From Asterionella formosa (taxonomy: Eukaryota): a stretch of DNA of 41,730 nt. Below, in pieces: positions 1 to 33,854 of this stretch. The first letter of the stretch is position 1; the number at the start of each line of letters is the position of its first letter. Made by a program: the position numbers and the translations under genes. The stretch spans positions 1 to 41,730 of the forward strand of contig NKIB01014652.1 in assembly GCA_002256025.1 (NCBI GenBank), written 5' to 3'. The notes under the pieces are model-generated. The model saw only the letters and a list, made by a program, of their open reading frames with translations, was not told where the DNA came from and made no database searches.

Positions 1-93
1 GAATGTATTAGCCTCAAGAGCAGGATCTTAGTTGAACTTTCAAATGAATTATTTGAAACATCAACTAATTCAGTCTCGCGTTCAAAATTCATT

Positions 94-160
94 GTGAAAA
101 CTTCACATGAAACAGTTAAAACTTAACATGAAACCGTTAAAACTAAACATGAAACCGTGA
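94..160. repeat. 21-bp tandem repeat, about 3 units
   Basis: catgaaacagttaaaacttaa / catgaaaccgttaaaactaaa / catgaaaccgtg start at 106, 127 and 148, with a partial unit at 94. Confidence 0.8.
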
Positions 161-253
161 AGAGTGGCATTAATGCATGTGAAGTACCACATAATTAACA
201 CTCGTACGTAGACGAAATTTCGAAAAGTGGCGTATTTCGCGGCTTAGATGTGA

Positions 254-1401
254 CGTGATTTTACAAGACCGGGATACTCCAGCCGATCTGGAGCAGGTGA
301 GTAAATTCAATTCAAGCAATCAGAATAGTATGTGTTGTGACGCGGAAACTCGCTCTGGAGTCTTTTCGGACAGAGAATTATTCAGCAAAACATACCTACG
401 CAAGACTCTAAGTCTACGAGAACGTTTTTGCACTTACTAATTCCGATTACAATATTTTGGCGACTGTTGAAAAACCCGATCGGGTCGACTTTTTGGAAGA
501 GGATTGCTCTACATCTACGGGGTTTCATGACGATTAAAATAGATAGCCGTGTACCCTATAATGTCAGAAATTAACTTCTGGAGAGAAGTGGCAGCTATGT
601 ATCATAGATTTTTTGGAAAGCTTCGTAGCCCTTTTTTTGACTAGTTTTGCGGTAGTTATGAATCTATGATACATAGCTGCCACTTCTCTCCAGAAATGGG
701 GTCCATACCATATCTGTATATAGATCATACCACTAAGTCGAGCAATGACAGTATCTAAGCATATGCAAAGTGGTCGTAATGGTGAAAGCTAATTTTGCCT
801 TAAACTATTATATTTACTTGTACATGATGTGTGGATTGATGTACATCATAAAAGTATTTTGGGAAGAAAGGACCTCACAATTTGTAACTGCGGCCCCGGC
901 TAACCCTAGTTTGGAGCAATACATCGCTAGGATTGTAAAAACGACATGGAACAAGGAGTTTGATTCGATGAATTCCCATGATTAGAGTGTCCATTTGAAT
1001 ATTTGAATTGAATAGGAATCCGGCGCCAGATTGATAGAGTTCTATTTTCAACAAACAAAAATGATTTTTAAACGTTTATATTGTATCTACGTTGATGGAT
1101 GTAGATATAATTTTACTCCACGCCAAAACACATATACAAATCATGGGTTTGCTGATATGTATACTCATGGTTCTTGTTTAAAAAGAATGGTATCATTTAT
1201 ACATTTATATTGAATCTACATTGCTGTATGTAGTGTAATATTACTCTACGCCCAAAGGCTATATACAAATCAGTACTGGAGTACTGGTATATTTATAATC
1301 TTGATTCATGAAGATGATGGAAGGCAGGATGAAACTAGTATTGATTTCACTTCCTGGTATACAGTACATCTATTACATGTGGTTCAAGTGTGGCTGGCGT
1401 G
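254..1401 (+). mobile_element. Circularly permuted copy of the non-autonomous TIR element at 32739-33854
   Basis: 258-893 matches the reverse complement of ~32749-33381, and 889-1401 matches the reverse complement of 33382-33851. A 46-nt block at 383-428 is identical to rc of 33214-33259. CGTG occurs at both ends (254-257, 1398-1401). Confidence 0.85.
576..695. repeat. Perfect 35-bp inverted repeat with 50-nt spacer
   Basis: 576-610 ttctggagagaagtggcagctatgtatcatagatt is the exact reverse complement of 661-695. Confidence 0.97.
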
Positions 1402-1790
1402 CAAAGTATATAACCAGAGCATTGTCAGCCCACTCCATATGAGACAAGCAAATTTGGCTTGTGTTATTGACCCTGCACATCAAATTCCATGTTAAGACCA
1501 GGAATAGGTGACCCCAAATGCCATCATCAGTTCCTAACTCAATGAACCAAGTACAAGGCAGGTGATGTATTTGATAGGTCATGGGGTCCTTACCCTCACA
1601 AACCTCTCCTAACCCATCATGATTCTCAACTGCAATTATCCGAAAAAAACACGCAAAAGATGGCAAAGTTCCTGCTCAATTTGACTGGGAGGCCTGTGCC
1701 ATTATAAAGCCTGAATAAGTTGAATAGAGCTGATTGAATATAGCTGGGGGCTCTGGAGATATACCATATATCCTGCTGGAGTGATTACAG
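1402..1790 (-). pseudogene. Crypton-like tyrosine-recombinase transposon remnant (N-terminal to middle part)
   Basis: Minus strand gives YSTYSG, IEQELCHL (other frame), RIIAVE..EGKDPM and HLFLVLTWNLMCRVNNTSQICLSHMEWADNALVIYFA. This resembles the WNLMCR catalytic-Arg box of stramenopile Crypton recombinases. Frameshifted and truncated at 1402. Confidence 0.7.
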
Positions 1791-2916
1791 AGAGCATGAT
1801 GAGGGCTTCCTCTGCCTGCAGCATGCTGAATCGATTCAACAAATCTGTTTGTTACATGATTTTTCCCTTCCCTTGTACCCATGCCTCCTGCCTCCATCTC
1901 AAAAAGAATCACCTTCTTCTGTTGGGAATATGCTGTAAGCCATCCTGCTTTGTGTTCAACACGCCAGCAAAAAAATGCCGAACTGTCAGAAATGTATGTG
2001 TGGTGTGTCCCCCCTGAGACTGTATTGTCCATCATCATCTGCTCATTGACTTCCTGTAAAGGAATGCCATGTGAATGAGGAGGAATATCTGAGATCATGA
2101 TGGTGATCACAAAGGGAAGTGGATGCAACCAAGAATATACAAACGAGCAATAAATGTGATGATGATTGTGCATGCAAAAATTACAGTAGTCGTTACAATA
2201 ATTTTTATGTACCATACTTGTGCTCACAGAAATGGTATCCGTTATACGTGTGTTGTTAGAGTGATGCTGGGCGGTGCAAATTTAAATAATAGTTTGTGCA
2301 GCCACATTTGTATCACACTTGTACCCTTTTGCCTGGTACTTGTAATCGTTCAATCAGAATTCTAACACCACAGCTTGATTGATCGATGCGGCTCTGACGT
2401 TAGTATCGAACAAACGGATCCGCAATTGCCATTGGTCGGAGCAGTCAAACAAACACCCTTACTCAATGGGTTATGACAGTTTTTTACTGGTAAATGGGAC
2501 AGAGAATCCTGGTACCAGGTACCAGGTACTTTGTCCGGTAGAACTGAACTACCGATAACTGATGACATTACCGGTAGGGAGATTTTTCGGACTCCCCGGT
2601 GTAAAACTGCTCTGTTACGTACTCGGCGTACTGGTACACGGTACCTGCTCATACTTCCGGATGGGTCTACCTGCTACCTGCTACTAGGTACCAGGTACCG
2701 AAGGACAGTATAGTCTCATCATAATCAGCATATTAAAAACGTTTTTGCCTGAGTCACACTTAGGGTGTATCTCACGTAGCTATACCGGCCTCTCACTTAT
2801 TTCCCATTTATCTTAAGAAAATGTTACTCGGGGAATCGTTTTTTCCATTTATACAAAGGCCTTGTAGTGGTCATCACTCATTTTGAGATCACATTTTAGA
2901 AATCATTCAATTCATC

Positions 2917-3594
2917 ATGGCAACAAATTCTTCCATCCGCCCACTACTTTTGGCTTTGTTCGTGATAAGCACTCTGGTTTGCGGGGGTTCACAAGTACAT
3001 GGTTTGTCATTCACGAAGCTACTGTCATCAACTACTAGCAAGAACAATGCCTGGATTACTATTGTTCCAGCACTTATTCCAGATGATCTAATCAGCATTC
3101 AAGAGTGTCGAAATTCTTTCACGACGGAAACAAGAAATTCATTTAAACAACGAATCTCACCTCGTTTTCTTAATGCCGACGCTTTATCTCAGCAAAATGT
3201 GGTTTGTATTCTGGCTCGCGAACGGCTGTATCCATGGCGTGTCCTGGGTACTGCTGACTTGAAGTGGAATGACAACACAGGGATTGGATATGTGATGAAT
3301 GTGTATGTGAGAGAAGAGGCTCGAGGAAAAGGCGTAGGAAAACGAATCATGAAGGGCGTGGAGGATTATGCCAGTGACAGGCGCACAGAAGCTGTGAGGT
3401 TGGAGGTTGATACCCAGAATATGGCAGCAGTATCTCTATATCGCCAATGCGGATATACAACTCCTGGTATTCACTCTATTACATCGCTGTTAGGACAACT
3501 GACCGGTCTCAATCTCAGAATATCCATGACAAAGAAGATACTGTCAGTATGTGACGGTGATTTCAGGCTGGCACTCATTAGCGAGGTGGAATAA
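2917..3594 (+). CDS. GNAT-family acetyltransferase with N-terminal signal peptide (possibly plastid-targeted)
   Basis: Acetyl-CoA motif A VMNVYVREEARGKGVG, followed by LEVDTQNMAAVSLYRQCGY. Hydrophobic N-terminus LLLALFVISTLV followed by an S/T-rich stretch. Confidence 0.88.
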   Translation: MATNSSIRPLLLALFVISTLVCGGSQVHGLSFTKLLSSTTSKNNAWITIVPALIPDDLISIQECRNSFTTETRNSFKQRISPRFLNADALSQQNVVCILARERLYPWRVLGTADLKWNDNTGIGYVMNVYVREEARGKGVGKRIMKGVEDYASDRRTEAVRLEVDTQNMAAVSLYRQCGYTTPGIHSITSLLGQLTGLNLRISMTKKILSVCDGDFRLALISEVE

Positions 3595-8460: not shown

Positions 8461-9412
8461 GATTATCACGGTCAATAAATATTTCTAATATGACACGACC
8501 TTTGTCCCAAATTTAAAAATTCAAACTTAACACGGCCGCTGATTGGATTGTCGGAGTTGTTTTATTATTAATCAACTGATGATGAATATATTTCGATAGA
8601 CACAGGGCTACAGGTAGACTGCCAGTAGACTATGTTACTACTGACTCATATCGTTGCCAGCAGCAGTTTGAAATGCATTTTTGGAATGACTGAAGAGAAT
8701 GCGGCCAAGAAAATGAGGCAACTGCCGTGGTAAGTGCCGATGTATCCATCTACGGGTATGGTACCATGTACTGTGGTCTACATTCTACATCATTTATGCA
8801 ATTCAAGCGCGCGGTACATAGAGACGCAGTAACATGAAACTGGTTTCTTAGTCGCTGAGCGTGTTGCAAATATGTACCGGAACAGAGGGAGTACATGGTA
8901 CATTGAGTCGGCCCATAAGAGTTGACACCTGTTCCAGCACATTGGAATCAGTAACTCGATTCTGCTTGGTCAAGGAGCCTGCACAAGTCTTACGAGCCGG
9001 GCCAACAATTTAACAAATAATTGGTTATGATATACTCCGTGTTGAAGGATCATACCTGGTACCCTGCTACTATTGCTCTCCCGCTGTAGACGTGGTACCA
9101 GGTACCGGTGGCTAAGAACTCGGTAGTACATATCGTTTACACGAGGGAAAACCAAGTAACTACAAAATGAACACAACGGACATCATTACTCAGAGCTAGG
9201 AGGGGAATTATAGATTTGGCAGGGTGGGTTAACCAATTTATTTATACCAGCCAATGTTGAGTGTAGTGGAAGGGTATCTCGCCAACGACCCCCTGTGAAA
9301 ACAATGCAAAAAATACAGGGGCAGTTATGCAATTCTGCACCACGAACGTGAGAGAGAATTCAGTGGTTAGGTCCAGCATCGCTTAGCTAAAACCTAGTCG
9401 CTGAAAGATGCG

Positions 9413-11116
9413 CTATTTCGCACATTGCTTTCCAGCAAGTTTGAACTCTTTCAATGTATCAATAAAGCTAAAGCCATAAGTTCCATTCAGATCTGGCTCA
9501 ACTTGACTCCCCTCCCACCATTCGTTCCAAGTAGTAATGAATATCATGGTTGGCAAACTCCCATCATACCATGACGGTCGACGCAAACAAGAGAACTCCT
9601 TAAGTTGTGCAATGAGCCCAGCCGAATCACCCGTCAAACGCTCATGGCCTCGGAAATCGAAATATTTGGGAAGGACATTCGGAAAAAATATTGTTTCATT
9701 GGACCACCGCTTGAATATAGGTAGTCCTTCGCGAAACATGAAATCTTTAGCACTCTCCCCTTCCTGCACTAAGGCATCTTCAAACATGTTGTACGTAGTG
9801 TAGCTCTCAAATACAGGTTTTCCATTCTGGACACCATTTCTGGCCTTATCTGGCCATTGTTGATCTGCTATGAATGGTTCATCCGCAATAAAAAATATAT
9901 TTTCACCAACTTCCTCCCTGACCTGATCCAACATGGACGATTTAAATCCATTCCATGTCCGAGTAATATACAAAACCACCACCGGGCGTTCATTCACACG
10001 GTAATAGGATGGATTGGAAAAATATTCACTTTTGAGGAACTTCATGTCGGCAATGAAATCGTCTATGGCTATGGTCCCATTTGAGAAGTCTCTGGTGGAC
10101 AAAGCAGCTGTAGATTCGTAATTCATGCAGAATTTGATTGGGTTTGTTGCTTGGAGCATACCTTCGCGAAAAAAAGTTGCTGTTGGACTATTTGGTTTTC
10201 CCCATGATACTACCCATGCGTCAATACCTGCCCGTCTCGCCCATTTATTGTGCTGTTCGGCTACTACTTGATCATCGCTTCCATAAAGACCCAACAGGGG
10301 TGTATCAGCATGGCCATGTTGGCTCCAGTTGTCTCGAAAATACCAAGGGTAGTAATATGCAAGGAAAAGTAACGTATTGTCAACAGTCACGGCCGAAGGA
10401 TTTGGAGAAGGAACTTTTTCAATAACTGGGGCAGAAGTTGGGAGTGGCGTTTCAAGTACAGATGGAGGCATTGATGGTTTGATCGATGCAATAGGGTCGG
10501 AAGATGGGTAGGTCGATGGTGTCTCAAGCTTGGACGGAAGAGTCGATGGTTGCAATGAAATGGATATTGTAGGGTCGGAAGATGGGTTGGTTGAGGGTGT
10601 CTCAAGCTTGGAAGGAAAATTCGATGGTTGCAACGAAATGGATACTGTCGGGTCAGAAGATGGGTTGGTTGATGGAATCTCAAGCTTGGAAGGAAAAGTC
10701 GATGGGTGCAATGAAATTGATATTGTAAGGTCGGACGATGGGTCGGTTGATGGTGTCTCAAGTTTGGATGGAAGAATCGATGGTTGGAATGAAATGGATA
10801 TGGTAGGGACGGAAGTTGGATTGGTAGGTGAGGTTGACGGGTATCCAGTCACAGGAGCAAAACTTTCATCACTTGGTTGCAGAGTAGGCGAAGTTGATTG
10901 AACAATTATAGAAGCCACTGAAGGAGAATAGCTATTTGATGGTGGCCACGTCTGAGAGGGGGCGGTGTTTAATCCAGTCGAGACGTTGGAATCATGCTGT
11001 TCACTATCATCAAAGGCAAGCTTCCATACTGTGACGCCCACAGCGACAGAAACGAGCACCAGCAAGCAAATCACACCAAATGTGCCCTTCCGACGGAGAA
11101 CCTCGGATCCTGGCAT
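9413..11116 (-). CDS. GH99-like endo-alpha-mannosidase/mannanase, type II membrane protein with Pro/Ser/Thr stalk
   Basis: N-terminal TM segment (VICLLVLVSVAVGVTVW), AYYYPWY, IDAWVVSW, and ITTWNEWWEGSQVEP matching the GH99 catalytic NEWxEG motif. Confidence 0.85.
   Translation of the reverse strand: MPGSEVLRRKGTFGVICLLVLVSVAVGVTVWKLAFDDSEQHDSNVSTGLNTAPSQTWPPSNSYSPSVASIIVQSTSPTLQPSDESFAPVTGYPSTSPTNPTSVPTISISFQPSILPSKLETPSTDPSSDLTISISLHPSTFPSKLEIPSTNPSSDPTVSISLQPSNFPSKLETPSTNPSSDPTISISLQPSTLPSKLETPSTYPSSDPIASIKPSMPPSVLETPLPTSAPVIEKVPSPNPSAVTVDNTLLFLAYYYPWYFRDNWSQHGHADTPLLGLYGSDDQVVAEQHNKWARRAGIDAWVVSWGKPNSPTATFFREGMLQATNPIKFCMNYESTAALSTRDFSNGTIAIDDFIADMKFLKSEYFSNPSYYRVNERPVVVLYITRTWNGFKSSMLDQVREEVGENIFFIADEPFIADQQWPDKARNGVQNGKPVFESYTTYNMFEDALVQEGESAKDFMFREGLPIFKRWSNETIFFPNVLPKYFDFRGHERLTGDSAGLIAQLKEFSCLRRPSWYDGSLPTMIFITTWNEWWEGSQVEPDLNGTYGFSFIDTLKEFKLAGKQCAK
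10495..10805 (-). repeat. Four 78-bp (26-aa) coding tandem repeats in the GH99 stalk
   Basis: TISISxQPSxxPSKLETPSTxPSSDP x4; ctcaag recurs at 10523 and 10601 (78-bp period). Confidence 0.92.
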
Positions 11117-12082
11117 GGCGATGCTAGCAATCAAATGATCCAATCCTAGAAAATAAATTGAGTTGCTGCAGATGAAGCATCAACATATCCTAGTCTGTGA
11201 GAGAGAACGCTGGAGATTCTTCACCTTGAGGGGGGAATAAAGCCAGTTGTTGTATAAAAACGGATTTTGCGTTTGTATGCATTCTAATAACAAAATGAAT
11301 TATGATTTGTTCGCGTAATTACTATCTCATATAGATAGTCTTTGGAGCATACCGGTAGTTTATTTACGGAGCATAGTGTCCGGCGAGGTGCCTGAATGCA
11401 CCTGGTGCCAGGTACTGGAGAATTTACCGGTATGACACGGCTGATGGAGGAGACTGTCTGCAATTGTCCTTGGGTGCAATTCAAGGGAGGCGCATATTTA
11501 TGTATTCGTACATAAGAAATACATAGGTTTCCGTAATAAACGCGAGCGGTGCCGACCTCGGCGCTGCGAGACATCGAGGGATAAATACCCCCACTGGACT
11601 ACCCGCGACCTGGTACCGTAGCCAGAACTACTACCAGTACACCAGTACCCTACAATGTACATGCTTTTACCACTAGACCAGTAGTACCATTACGGTAGGA
11701 TGTTTAGTATACGTTATATAATTGTATATATGTTATCTAATAAGCGGTATCAGGGTACCCGAAAGCCAACAATTCAAAAACTGGCGGGAGCAGTGTGAAA
11801 GGAGAAATCTAAAAAATATACATGAACACTTGTCAAACCTTATTCCTGTATAATAACTACCGGGTATACATCAGACCAGATATCAATAACTTCTGCTAAC
11901 CCAGCCGCTATTCTATCAATTTATAGAAAGACCGATGTTGAGTATAGCGGTAGAAGAAGCAAAGTATCGCCATAGAAACCCCAAGTGGAATGCATTGCAA
12001 AAAATATATCTACAAACTTGAGAGAGAATTTAGTGGTTAGGTACAGCATCGCTTAGCTAAAACCTAGTCGCTGAAAGATGCG

Positions 12083-13255
12083 CTATTTCGCACATTGCTT
12101 TCCAGCAAGTTTGAACTCTTTCAATGTATCAATAAAGCTAAAGCCATACGTTCCATTTAGATCTGGCTCAACTTGACTCCCCTCCCACCATTCGTTCCAA
12201 GACGTAATGAACATCATGGTTGGCAAACTCCCATCATACCATGACGGTCGAGGCAAACAAGAGAACTCCTTAAGCTGTGTAATGAGCCCAGCCGAATCAC
12301 CAGTCAAACGCTTATGGCCTCGGAAATCGAAATATCTGGGAACAATATTGGGAAAAAATATTGTTTCATTGGACCACCGCTTGAATATAGGTAGTCCTTC
12401 GCGAAACATGAAATCTTTAGCACTCTCCCCTTCCTGCACTAAGGCATCTTCAAACATGTTGTACGTAGTGTAGCTATCAAAGACGGGCTTTCCGCCTACG
12501 ATGCCATTTCTCGCTTTTTCTGGTGATTGTTGACCTTTGATAAATGGTTCATCCGCAATGAAAAATATATTTTCACCAACTTCCTCCCTGACCTGATCCA
12601 ACATGGACGACTTAAATCCATTCCATGTCCGAGTAACGTACAAAACCACCACCGGCCGTTCATTCACACGGAAATAGGATGGATTGGAAAAATATTCACT
12701 TTTGAGGATCTTCATGTCGGCAATAAAAGCATTTATAGCAATGGTACCATTTGAAAAGTCACGGGTGGGCAATGCACCCATACTTTCATAAATAAAGCAG
12801 AACTTTATTTGTTGCAGGTTTTTCGCCTTGAGCATACCTTCGCGAAAATGAGTCGCGGTTGTGCTCGTTTGCTTTACCCACGATACTACCCACACATCAA
12901 TTCCTGCTTGTCTCGCCCAATCGTTGTGCTGTTCGGCTATTTTTGTTTCGTTGGTGCCATAAAGACCCAAAAGTGGCGTATCTTCGTGGCCATGTCGACT
13001 CCAGTCGTCTCGAACATACCAGGGGTAGTAATAGGCAAGGTAAAGTAGAGCATTGTTCGCTGTGTCGACCGAAGGATTTTGAGATGTAAATCCTACAACA
13101 ACAGGTGCGGTAATTGGAAAGAAGGATTCAAACACGGCTGGAATATTTGGTCGGAATACAATAAAACTTGTAACATTGATAAGAACAGATACGACCGCAA
13201 GCAACCAAACGAAACCCCTTTTGCCCATTGGACGTGGATCGCGATGCATCAGCAT
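12083..13255 (-). CDS. GH99-like glycosidase paralog with short stalk
   Basis: Same motifs (AYYYPWY, ITSWNEWWEGSQVEP) and N-terminal TM. The 3' half and 3' UTR are near-identical to the 9413-11116 gene. Confidence 0.87.
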   Translation of the reverse strand: MLMHRDPRPMGKRGFVWLLAVVSVLINVTSFIVFRPNIPAVFESFFPITAPVVVGFTSQNPSVDTANNALLYLAYYYPWYVRDDWSRHGHEDTPLLGLYGTNETKIAEQHNDWARQAGIDVWVVSWVKQTSTTATHFREGMLKAKNLQQIKFCFIYESMGALPTRDFSNGTIAINAFIADMKILKSEYFSNPSYFRVNERPVVVLYVTRTWNGFKSSMLDQVREEVGENIFFIADEPFIKGQQSPEKARNGIVGGKPVFDSYTTYNMFEDALVQEGESAKDFMFREGLPIFKRWSNETIFFPNIVPRYFDFRGHKRLTGDSAGLITQLKEFSCLPRPSWYDGSLPTMMFITSWNEWWEGSQVEPDLNGTYGFSFIDTLKEFKLAGKQCAK

Positions 13256-16694: not shown

Positions 16695-17546
16695 GATGAC
16701 CAAGTGACTGGTTCTTCTACGGACGTTTGTCGAACGGAAATAAAACTATGAAATCACTAGAGTAGCAGTCAACAAGCTTTTTGATTCAAGTAGATGTTTT
16801 CGCGAATCAAAACAGGTTCGTGTTGCAATTCTCAAGAGAAATCACGAGATTCGATCTGGTTGCGTTGCGTTTTGTTTTATGTGCAGGAGGAAAACGAAAG
16901 CTCAGCTCCTTCTGGTATTTGATTCGTTGCTGACAAATCCTACACCTTTTATCGTAAGGGACAACCTCTTTTGCGTGAAACGGGAATACCGGGTATAAAT
17001 AAACGAAGTACTTATACATGAAAACGAATGGAGCAAAGCAACAGTGAAACCCGAGGGATTGCTGATGCATGACTAATAAACAAAGCAAGCGATTACCGGT
17101 TTATGTAGAGAAGACATCATACATATATGTATACATATAATAAATTATTTAAAACCGATACTCCCTAAGCTCTTGTTGGTCGAGTTTACCGGTACCTGGT
17201 ACCAGGTACCAGGTGAGCGATCCCGTGCATCAACACAGATATATATAGGGTTGGAGTTATTTACTATAGGTATATCAGAACTCAATATCGAGAGAACTCG
17301 ACTAACACTTTTATTGCATACTTTGGTGTCAGTGAAAAAGCAATCGAGTTACCGGTGTATATATCAAGATTATTATTACCTAGAATTCTCAAACAGTCAA
17401 CAGATTCTACTACCGGTACTTCTAGTGGACGCGCTCTGATAATAAAAAATTATTATATCATGTGTATTACAACACAAATCGTTGTACCCATAACCCCAAA
17501 ATTTGTGTTTGTGTTAACCAAATTTGGTAAACCTGGTAAGCACCTC

Positions 17547-17820
17547 GATTCTTATTACAACAATTCTTATAACAACAACAATTCTTATAACAACAACAAC
17601 TCTTATAACAACAACAAGAACAACAAGAACAACAAGAACAAGAACAAAAACAAAAACAAGAACAAAAACAAGAACAAAAACAAGAACAAAAACAAGAACA
17701 AGAACAAAAACAAAAACAAAAACAAGAACAAGAACAAGAACAAGAACAAGAACAAAAACAAAAACAAAAACAACAACAACAACAACAACAACAACAAAAA
17801 CAACAACTACTACTACTACT
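17547..17820. repeat. Compound AAC/AAG/AAA microsatellite with (TAC)n end
   Basis: Three tcttat(t/a)acaacaa units, then mixed (AACAAG)/(AACAAA) units, then (AAC)n and (TAC)n. Confidence 0.97.
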
Positions 17821-17835
17821 TCCACTCTTAAGGAA

Positions 17836-18135
17836 TCTATACTTACTTGGTATGATGAGGAAGCTAAGGGAAACAGATCTCTGCTAGAATCCAAAAGGAA
17901 TTTGATTGCTCCAATTCTTGTGTGGGAATTCATGAGGTAACAATTTTTCCATTGGCATCTACACCTTGGACTGAGGATGAAGTGGTGACAAATTCAGGTA
18001 TTCATTGGGACCTTGATTGTTAATGATAGAATCAGGATTTGATACATGCTTGCAGGATGGCCAGAAACAGCACGCAACAATCGCATATTTGAAAATTTGT
18101 AGTTGTTCTTTCAGAAAGGCGTGTTCTTTGACGAG
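17836..18135 (+). pseudogene. PIF/Harbinger-type DDE transposase remnant
   Basis: Across frames: LTWYDEE, KEFDCSNSCVGI, TIFPLASTP, and YSLGTLIVNDRIRI*YMLAGWPETARNNRIFEN. This resembles the CVGxxDG...GWPGSxHDxRVF pattern of DDE_Tnp_4; stops and frameshifts present. Confidence 0.75.
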
Positions 18136-28079: not shown

Positions 28080-29759
28080 TTATAAATAACTTCATTTCTT
28101 AAGCGTCTTAAAACTACACAACTTTGAATAGTGCAGCTCGCATGGCGCTTCCTGGCGTCGCCAGCCTAGATTCCGAAGTGAGAATCAACCCATGATCAGC
28201 CCAATAGACGTGGTGACAAAGGGCGCTGGTACGCGGGGAAAAGGTGGATACACTCCCTCGAATTGGAGCCATATTAAGTGTGCTTATTGCTGCCTGTGGT
28301 GATAAATGTTGATTTGCCTTTCCCTTGTCTTACAGACCTGAAAAGAAAGTGGATAACTTGGTTTGAGTTGTCGGAGGCTGGGCTAGGACCGGGGCTTCTG
28401 CAGACTCTCTTGGTGGTACTTTGGTGCTGGGAGTCGTGAAAAAAATTTGTGGATAGATTGCTGGCTTGTTTTTGGCCAACTCTGATGATTCTTTGAACAG
28501 AATATCTGCCTTTTCAAGAAACCTACCGGTATGTTCCGTTCCCAGGCGTGATTTCAGAATATCAATCAGTGGATGCATAAATAAGTGAGCATCTCTTACA
28601 CAAATCTCATGTTGATTTGCATAAAAATTATCTGATGCGGGCGTCACTATCCGATTGGGAAATGGTTGTGTTGAGGGAATTGTGGAGAACCTCGTTCCTC
28701 TCTTTCCGTGCCTTCTTTGTTGCCATTGACCAGAGCTTTATAATTGCCTCTGAAGTCCAATTGTGAGCGGTCTGGAGGTGGTGCTCCTCTGATGCTGCCA
28801 TTATAGCAGACCCCTATCTAGTAGATAGGTAACCCCTCAGGGTGAAGATACAGCCTATCTGACGTTGCTGCTGAATTGCCTCCTGAATAATAGCTTTTTC
28901 TGATGGATTTGTGCCGGGAACAAAATGTTCGGGAAAATGTTCCATTGGTGAATGCAAAAGATGAGTGGAGTGATCAGTACAAGGAAGTCAAGAAAACAAC
29001 CTCGACTTACTGTCGAATTCAATGATAATACAAAATCGTTTATAATTCTCGATATTCCTTTTATTAACCAAAAATAGTCAAGATTTGAAATTTATTTAGG
29101 AAAATATTTTATCATTGATATTAACGATTATTCATTTTATAGGTTTTTAGTTTAAAAAAGTAATCACGAGTTCCCCAGACCAACCCATTGTGTATATATA
29201 AACACTTTTGTGCAAGGATTGTATTTTCTCCGCCTGGACCCTTTTTTGGGAAGCCAGCCATGGATAAATTTGGATAGCACAATTTTTCCCTTTCCTTTCT
29301 GCTTCCTGAATGCGGTAGAAAACTCCTCCCAACTAATATATTTATATCGAAACAAAATCCTGTGTTTCTGTATGAAGAATTCCCTGTAGTTTGCTTCTTG
29401 AATACTGACCCGCATCCAACTAGAGGTGGCGCTATGAATTTGTGTGGTGCCCAGCAACCAAGAGGCTAGCTTGCATTGTTGGAAAGTGAGAACTGTTGGA
29501 CTCCGGATGGCCCAGAGTCCCTTGAGGATTAGTATTACTCAAGTAAGCGTCGGCAAGCTCATCGGTGTGGATATTTAGCTTTGCTCCTTTTGTCCATGAT
29601 GTATTCCTAGGATTTCTGTCTTGATGTGACCGAACCCATGCAATTTTTGTGGAAATGGGTAGTTGGTGGATTAATTGAGCCTATTGAGACAACACTATGT
29701 CTGCATTGTTGGGGGGGGGGGGGGGGGGGGGAGACCGGGGGCNNNNNNNNNNCCCCCCC

Positions 29760-32738: not shown

Positions 32739-33854
32739 GGTTGCGGCCCCGCAGTTACATATTGCGAGGTCCGTTTTTTCCCAAAATAATTTTATGATGT
32801 ACCTTAATCCACACATTACGTACAAGTACATGAAATAGTTAAAGGTAAAATTAGCTTTCGCCAATACGACCACTTTGCACATGCTTAGATACAGTCATGG
32901 GTCGACTAAGGGGTATGTTCTATCTTCGGATATGTTAAGGACCTCATTCTAGAAAGAAACTGCAGTTATGTATCGTAGAATCGTACCTATCGCAAAAATA
33001 GTCAAAAAAAAGGGCTACGAAGCTTTTCTAAAAATCTACGATACATAACTGCAGTTTCTCTCCAGAACTTAACTCCTGACGTAACAGGGTACACGGCTAT
33101 CTACTTTAATCTTGATGAAACCCCACAGATGTAGAGCAATCCTCCTCCCAAAAGTCGACCCGATCGGCTTTTTCAACAGTCGCCAAAATATTGGAATCGG
33201 AATTTGTATGTGTAAAACGTTCTCGTAGACTTAGAGTCTTGCGTAGGTATGTTTTGCTGCTTAACTCTCAGTCCGAAAAGACTCCAGGGTACGTTGCCGC
33301 GTCACTGCACATATTCTGATTGGTTGAATTGAATGTACTTACCTGCTCCAGATTGGCTGAATTATTCCGGTCTTGTAAAATCACGCCAGCCACACTTGAA
33401 CCGCACGGATTAGAAGTACCATACAAGCAGGTAAAATCAGTGCCGGTACACCGGTACTAGTTTCAAGCTGTCTTCCATCACAATGAACCGAGAATATGTG
33501 GTAACGGTACACCGGTACTCTGGTACCCAACATGGAGCAGCGAAGATTAGATATAACGTATAAACACGAACCATGAGCATACATGTTGGCATACTCCTGA
33601 TTTATATATGTGTTTTGGGGTTGAACAAAATCATGTCTACATTCGGCAATGGAGATATAACACTTGCGTTTAAATATCATTTTTGTTTGTTTCAAATGGA
33701 ACTCTATCAATCTGGCGCCGATTCCTATTTAATTTAAATATTCAAATGGACACTCGAATCATGGGAATTCATAGTAGGAAACTCCCTGTTCCACGCCGTT
33801 TTTACAGCCCTTAAGATATTTTCTCCAAACTAGGGTTCAGCTGGGGCCGCAACC
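32739..33854 (-). mobile_element. Non-autonomous TIR DNA transposon (1116 bp), Kolobok- or Harbinger-like termini
   Basis: TIR GGTTGCGGCCCC at 32739-32750 and its reverse complement at 33843-33854. Flanks are TTCA and TTAA (TTAA duplication with one mismatch). A second copy lies at 254-1401; no convincing ORF. Confidence 0.85.
32947..33067. repeat. 35-bp inverted repeat homologous to 576-695
   Basis: Arms 32947-32981 and 33033-33067 are complementary at 32 of 35 positions. Confidence 0.95.

Follow-up and report, generated by a model that had tools for sequence, protein, structure and literature searches.

Two copies of a repeat element of ~1.1 kb are present in the window, i.e., the whole 41,730-nt stretch of Asterionella formosa DNA that was analysed. 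A run of 10 N at position 29743 marks the window as a scaffold and not a continuous contig. One copy, termed c2, is a canonical copy bounded by terminal inverted repeats (TIRs). The other, termed c1, is located near the left end of the window and displays the two segments of the element, A and B, in rotated order. They are the two copies of the family that could be aligned with each other from the collections searched. The features of c2 are:

32739..33854, minus strand: canonical TIR-bounded copy c2, 1116 nt, segment order B then A (blastn and TIR search)
32739..32750, plus strand: 12-nt TIR GGTTGCGGCCCC of c2 (motif search)
33843..33854, minus strand: 12-nt TIR GGTTGCGGCCCC of c2 (motif search)
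33382..33385, minus strand: CGTG at the continuous B/A join of c2, CACG on the plus strand (motif search)

The sequence GGTTGCGGCCCC forms a perfect 12-nt inverted repeat and has two matches in the whole window, which are just the ends of c2. The expected number is 0.08, and two matches were reached in one of 100 shuffles. Read in the orientation of c2, the letters next to its ends are TTAA and TGAA (or TAA and TGA), a pair with one mismatch known from a single copy. The c1 span 254-1401 carries no open reading frame of 120 amino acids or more in the ORF list, and Pfam detects neither a transposase nor a recombinase among the 13 window ORFs scanned. The element has TIRs and many dispersed copies, and it represents a family of non-autonomous TIR (cut-and-paste) DNA transposons of ~1.1 kb.

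Both copies contain an internal hairpin, which in c1 is the following feature:

576..695, plus strand: internal hairpin of c1 with 35-nt arms, 100% complementary, and a 50-nt loop (repeat search)

The hairpin of c2 is found at 32947-33067, and its arms are 94% complementary over 33 nt. Eight arm-pair positions differ between c1 and c2; five of these are compensated on both arms and three are one-sided. Other copies of the family have deletions centred on the hairpin (joints 593->673 and 587->685). The hairpin could be a maintained structure, a product of palindrome homogenisation or a nested foldback element. Segment B of c2 also displays three 15-nt copies of GGTACC / CGGTACACCGGTAC-like motifs (33440-33530), and these recur at 2500-2700, upstream of a GNAT gene.

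The copy c1 occupies window positions 251/254-1401 on the plus strand and is a circular permutation, by one unit, of c2 (33854->32739). Segment A (c2 470-1103) comes first and segment B (c2 4-473) second. Its parts are:

252..253, plus strand: GA, either two filler letters or diverged c2 positions 468-469 (alignment; TE-R ends, see below)
254..257, plus strand: left CGTG of c1, c2 470-473 (motif search; alignment)
254..888, plus strand: segment A of c1, c2 470 to about 1098 (blastn 85.9%; alignment)
889..893, plus strand: TGCGG common to both termini, the fused TIR-TIR junction with 18 nt missing (alignment gap; overlapping blastn matches 251-893 and 889-1180)
894..1397, plus strand: segment B of c1, c2 9-469 (blastn 82.6% and 70.3%; alignment)
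1067..1272, plus strand: two copies of a 129-nt-spaced sub-repeat within B, the second mostly absent from c2 (repeat search; alignment)
1398..1401, plus strand: right CGTG of c1, c2 470-473 (motif search; alignment)

With the reverse-complemented c2 (1116 nt) as blastn query and the window as subject, three matches are found and these are rotated in order. Positions 467-1106 of c2 match window 251-893 (85.9% over 645), positions 4-294 match window 889-1180 (82.6% over 293) and positions 375-473 match window 1315-1401 (70.3% over 101). A repeat search of the window gives the same permutation as seven inverted pairs. When c1 is aligned end to end with the rotated c2, there is a single 18-nt gap and it falls exactly at the TIR-TIR junction. 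The earlier note had read A then B in c1 and B then A in c2, and blastn, the repeat pairs and the end-to-end alignment all bear this out. The longest exact run common to the two copies is 34 nt. The stretch 1181-1314 of c1 aligns poorly to c2 because c1 has the second copy of the 129-nt sub-repeat.

At the junction, the end of c2, ...AACTGCGGGGCCGCAACC, meets the start, GGTTGCGGCCCC..., and what is left at 889-893 reads ...GTAAC TGCGG CCCC... The alignment gap agrees with the earlier description of fused termini and an 18-nt loss between TGCGG microhomologies. Neither TIR is whole at the junction, and neither TTAA nor a target site duplication (TSD) is left; these may have gone with the deletion.

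The two outer ends of c1 map to one point of c2 (467/470 and 473), such that exactly one unit is visible, plus 4-7 nt. The ends overlap by 4 nt exactly, or by 7 nt if one mismatch is allowed (TGaCGTG / TGGCGTG). The motif CGTG had been noted as present at both ends of c1 and once at the B/A join of c2. The positions are correct, but the motif is not unique within the element: there are five in c2 (positions 60, 287, 448, 470 and 760) and three in c1, and the whole window has 94 in 41,730 nt, about one per 440 nt. A weak resemblance of ~16 nt left of 254 to the end of segment B does not stand, as it is at the level of chance, with 1999 and 1066 of 5000 shuffles reaching an equal or higher score. 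A likeness between the flanks and the absent halves of the element was likewise rejected, as it too is no better than in shuffled sequence. The ~16 nt left of 254 belong to the neighbouring repeat.

This neighbour is a second repeat family, termed TE-R:

1..251, plus strand: terminal part of TE-R, cut by the window start, with its terminus at 250/251 (contig ends; seven metagenome loci)
97..158, plus strand: 21-nt tandem sub-repeat in three copies, inside TE-R (TRF)

The earlier note had considered that window 1-253 might be part of a longer member of the same family as c1. This is not so, as the sequence is that of a different repeat. The left edge of c1 lies 0-3 nt from the terminus of TE-R, which is also the more abundant of the two repeats. 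The left flank next to c1 reads ...GGCTTAGATGT(GACGTG), and the sequence right of c1 starts with CAAAGTATATAACC.

The copies in sequencing data give both the terminus of TE-R and the usual form of the c1/c2 family. Parts of window 1-2400 are present in 20 of 24 listed runs, from algae and from freshwater and lake metagenomes. Contigs from four runs of four studies (X1, X5, X6 and X7) were aligned to window 1-2400 at 80% likeness. In X1, 52,920 contig pieces aligned; X1 may be the source sample and hence is not independent. Summed depth over window 1-240 of TE-R is 3.5-4.3 million in X1, three to four times that of the c1/c2 element, at about 1 million. Contigs diverge behind position 250/251 into unrelated sequence in 82 cases in X1, in 10 in X5 and in 12 in X7, and their flanks agree at a level of just 0.44-0.45. 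There are also loose ends before position 156 in 154 X1 contigs, which suggests that the copy number of the 21-nt sub-repeat varies.

A 23-mer of TE-R is found in seven metagenome contigs (L001-L007) and has no matches in the genome contig and viral contig collections. Six of these loci have 94-96% identity to window 7/32-228/256, with 77-100% over short pieces, and L002 is more distant (80%). From the seven loci, TE-R is a repeat of at least about 2 kb. Variants have internal deletions of about 600 nt, and a 228->40 tandem sub-duplication is present in L001, L003 and L004. Identity among TE-R copies, L002 apart, is 94-99.8%, against 70-86% between c1 and c2, and TE-R is therefore the younger family. 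Its end can be read in four of the seven loci: at 251 in L005 and L006, which have unrelated flanks, at 247 in L004 and at 256 in L007. The L007 sequence ends ...GATG-GACGT and is followed by unrelated sequence; at this place the window reads ...GATGTGACGT. This is a hint that GACGT at window 252-256 might be the tail of TE-R, although a coincidence of 5 nt among five ends has a probability of ~3%. The ORFs of TE-R are on the minus strand, and one of them displays a CxxC...H...C motif (L006 700-1224). An inverted-repeat partner of the TE-R end was found neither in the window nor in the seven loci.

For the c1/c2 element, summed depth in X1 is 0.5-1.8 million over the core bins, against about 750-1000 for single exact contigs. 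With summed contig depth as a rough guide, the copy number of the family is of the order of a thousand or higher. A joint 1397->254, with a step back of 1144, is found in 8, 4, 6 and 2 contigs of X1, X5, X6 and X7, respectively. The join of B to A is thus continuous in 20 contigs from all four runs, and near variants are seen among the joints listed (1392->260, 1394->251 and 1395->261). In 32 X1 contigs that match from position 254 on, the end of segment B precedes, with an agreement of 0.91. Other copies are represented by pieces that break off at 869 or begin at 901, with unmatched contig beyond (X5 records 12 and 13, X6 record 22, X7 record 30). Because B continues into A in other copies, the TIR-bounded order B-A is the normal one and c1 is the odd one. 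A core pattern of the element has no matches in the metagenome, viral and genome contig collections, a second core pattern and the c1 junction 26-mer have none in viral contigs, and the seven TE-R metagenome loci contain no element sequence.

Contigs nearly identical to window 1497-2398 (3-6 differing letters in 315-631 nt, or 1-2%) are also present in X5, X6 and X7, which are lake metagenomes from three further studies; this organism, or one very close to it, is therefore widespread in fresh water.

To the right, c1 is followed by a sequence termed X and then by a host gene:

1402..2886, no strand assigned: right flank X, moderately repeated (contig depth; Pfam; the GNAT ORF comes after)
2887-3594: GNAT ORF, an ordinary host gene (Pfam)

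X has a summed depth about 4-90 times that of single exact contigs of X1. It is not similar to the TE-R loci, and its ORFs have no Pfam match. In the Pfam scan of TE-R and X ORFs none is above threshold; the best is Zn_Tnp_IS91 with an E value of 0.014, below its cut-off.

It is possible, with a probability that we put at roughly 0.4, that c1 is a dead one-unit copy derived from a closed circular form of the non-autonomous transposon. In such a history the element would first have excised. Its ends would then have been joined on the TGCGG microhomology by end joining, with the loss of 18 nt, and neither TIR would have stayed complete. The circle would have been broken at or beside CGTG (c2 470-473), and illegitimate joining, either non-homologous or by microhomology, would have sealed it into a break in the chromosome with neither a transposase nor a recombinase involved. 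The chromosomal break would have been at the end of a TE-R copy that was active and already resident, and this would explain the position of the left junction, 0-3 nt from the TE-R terminus. The circle itself, the order of events and the joining pathway are what we infer. Capture of a circle at a break made by an active TE-R end is plausible, if wholly inferred, and a TE-R copy landing at this point later is unlikely.

Several observations are consistent with a circle. The permutation is of one unit, and ends in phase are expected of a linearised circle; for a randomly truncated dimer, simple arithmetic gives ends in phase within about 0-7 nt at ~8/1116, or about 0.7%. The other copies of the family are canonical, both by the 1397->254 joint and by their ends at 869 and 901, and window 1-253 is not of the same family. 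The form of the junction matches that reported for transposon episomes of hobo/Hermes, and the illegitimate re-insertion of a Ds circle provides a precedent (both in the accessible part of PMC2803484). On the other side, the left junction coincides with a TE-R terminus, and if TE-R came later this is as unlikely as a dimer being truncated in phase. Nor should a plain linearised circle have a terminal duplication of 4-7 nt. This would be tolerable if the break was staggered and filled in, or if the left CGT is the tail of TE-R, as in L007, one of the four readable ends. An empty site, a second permuted copy or a circle has not been seen. The assembly is a short-read scaffold with an N run, and the sequence left of TE-R is outside the window. 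The earlier proposal that the element circularised and re-entered the genome thus agrees with the unit permutation, the crippled fused termini, the in-phase ends and the normal order of TIR-bounded copies. It fits less well with a left edge on TE-R, which may be secondary, the result of a TE-R insertion into a longer array of head-to-tail units.

Such an array is the basis of the next explanation, which is somewhat unlikely: c1 would be what is left of a dimer or short array of units in the chromosome, [B A][B A], placed head to tail and cut by TE-R. The dimer might have originated by double insertion into a regenerated target site or by unequal exchange. The TIR-(TSD)-TIR palindrome would have been shortened by about 18-22 nt through slippage from one TGCGG repeat to the other, the young TE-R would have entered the left unit at c2 about 467-470, with the remainder beyond the window start, and the right unit would have been cut at c2 473. 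The left edge of c1 is exactly the TE-R terminus, and a nested insertion of the younger TE-R family needs no coincidence there. DNA transposons commonly form tandem dimers, and the tandem junctions of hobo mostly have small deletions (PMC5932611, accessible part). The c2 flanks TTAA and TGAA would fit a fixed target of 4 bp, restored on either side of each insert. The right edge is the difficulty, as it lies within 4-7 nt of the TE-R insertion point in the element, which by chance has a probability of about 1%. In addition, no TSD is left in the junction, exactly one unit is present within the window, and the joints listed include no other head-to-tail junction of the family, although absence from that shortened list carries no weight. 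The history of a circle and that of a dimer both fit, and each needs one coincidence of about equal size.

An improbable alternative is that the assembly has followed a scaffold path through real junctions (TE-R|A, head-to-tail and B|X) that belong to different loci, and that this order exists in no single molecule. The window is indeed a scaffold containing a gap of 10 N, and the family is highly repeated, as the number of X1 pieces attests. Logan contigs of the best run break every 150-300 nt inside c1, and the pieces listed include none that spans c1 or positions 251-254, 889-893 or 1401-1402, although for these three junctions absence from a shortened list is uninformative. Against a chimera, c1 is 14-30% diverged from c2 with no common exact run above 34 nt, and letters specific to c1 at 1285-1304 are at about single-copy depth in X6, X7 and X1. 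In-phase ends would still need an explanation. Of sampled 31-mers of window 1-2400, 87% are present in X1, which is possibly the source sample and hence not independent.

More improbable still is a tandem of higher order. Here a transposable element T, with its ends in TE-R and in X at 1402, would have inserted at the CGTG of an array unit with a duplication of 4-7 bp; unequal exchange would have duplicated T together with A-junction-B, and the second T would later have been truncated. No coincidence would then be needed for the ends being in phase, for the repeat of 4-7 nt (which would be a TSD) or for the TE-R terminus, and the ORFs of TE-R and X are on one (minus) strand. However, X is dissimilar to about 2 kb of TE-R in the seven loci, the end of TE-R has no inverted-repeat partner, the depth of X is 50-1000 times below that of TE-R with no high-copy loose end at 1402 among those listed, and host genes begin 1.5 kb after 1402.

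Crypton and other tyrosine-recombinase elements integrate by a crossover between circle and chromosome at a short common core, and the core is then present at both ends. That CGTG is such a core, and that c1 came from a Crypton-like circle integration as a second, regular route of mobilisation, is hardly to be credited. A 4-bp identity at both ends of one copy, c1, is all that speaks for it. The c1/c2 element has TIRs, has no long ORF, transposase match or recombinase gene, and no recombinase is detected by Pfam in the 13 window ORFs. CGTG is a common motif; the joints listed at this site in other copies all continue from B to A, and a foreign transposable element ends 2 nt away from the left CGTG. 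Three successive inversions, or gap repair with template switching, were rejected as the origin of c1, since neither yields a TIR-TIR junction.

By either history, that of a circle or that of a dimer, c1 fits known kinds of events: excision circles with rare illegitimate re-insertion, tandem dimers of transposable elements and re-insertion of extrachromosomal circular DNA (eccDNA). The closest case is that of Ds in Arabidopsis, where an abortive circular transposition intermediate was re-inserted illegitimately (Yang, Ma & Makaroff 2004, Plant Mol Biol 55:905, as cited in PMC2803484). There, as in the circle explanation of c1, the circle of a TIR transposon re-entered by illegitimate recombination and not via its TIRs. 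From what that citation conveys, the Ds case is from an experimental line, whereas c1 is an old natural copy in an alga, is located beside the end of another transposable element and is known from an assembly alone.

Circles of the hAT elements hobo and Hermes lacked one inverted terminal repeat (ITR) or both in 50-60% of cases, with variable deletions (O'Brochta et al. 2009, PMC2803484, accessible part). As with the c1 junction, the episomes described there are formed by end-to-end joining, and termini and sub-terminal sequence are often deleted. Re-integration in that account differs from c1 in that it is carried out by transposase via intact ITRs, and the product is a normal copy that has a TSD of 8 bp; c1 has no complete TIR, and its entry point would be internal.

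Tandem dimers of transposable elements may form by double insertion, or by a circle with rolling-circle replication and re-insertion (McGurk & Barbash 2018, PMC5932611, accessible part). They resemble c1 in their head-to-tail TIR-TIR junctions, those of hobo often having small deletions, and according to the same text a deleted junction such as that at 889-893 can arise in the chromosomal TIR-TIR palindrome of a double insertion. In contrast to c1, which has no TSD and one visible unit, a double insertion as described there leaves a TSD in the junction, and dimers have more than one unit. A further parallel is found in the Cast satellite DNAs of Tribolium, for which dispersal mediated by eccDNA has been proposed, with microhomology at some junctions (PMC11610590, accessible part). 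As in the circle explanation of c1, circular repeat DNA would insert at new sites; the Cast satellites are short tandem arrays, with the mechanism inferred in that report too, whereas c1 is a single whole transposon.

A word search of open-access text found no genome-wide report of circularly permuted DNA-transposon copies. Excision circles are usually regarded as dead-end by-products. In the open-access literature searched, as far as its accessible parts extend, re-insertion of circles in the germ line is represented mainly by the one experimental Ds case. Should the circle origin of c1 be true, as long reads might confirm, c1 would represent the natural, fixed re-entry of a DNA-transposon circle without the use of TIRs. 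If c1 is instead a dimer cut by a nested insertion, it represents ordinary decay of repeat DNA. In either case c1 is one inert copy with no evident effect on genes. It is very improbable that excised circles belonging to other transposons are captured at breaks formed by the ends of the active TE-R family, or that CGTG is a true crossover core, such that permuted copies without TIRs are made repeatedly. If one of these were true, there would be a regular circle-based and TIR-independent side route by which DNA-transposon sequence spreads in this alga.

Two further repeat regions are present among the genes of the window. Direct-repeat blocks at 9342-10440 and 12012-13116 are 2670-2676 nt apart and display 96% and 76% identity over 300 nt each. 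They fall within a pair of adjacent minus-strand ORFs, both of which match GH99 / WbsX-like domains, and the pair looks like a tandem gene duplicate. One of the two copies holds a 78-nt internal repeat, present four times, at 10482-10871. At 17520-17840 there are dense periodic repeats of 9-12 nt (19 overlapping copies of a 114-nt register), which overlap ORFs on both strands.
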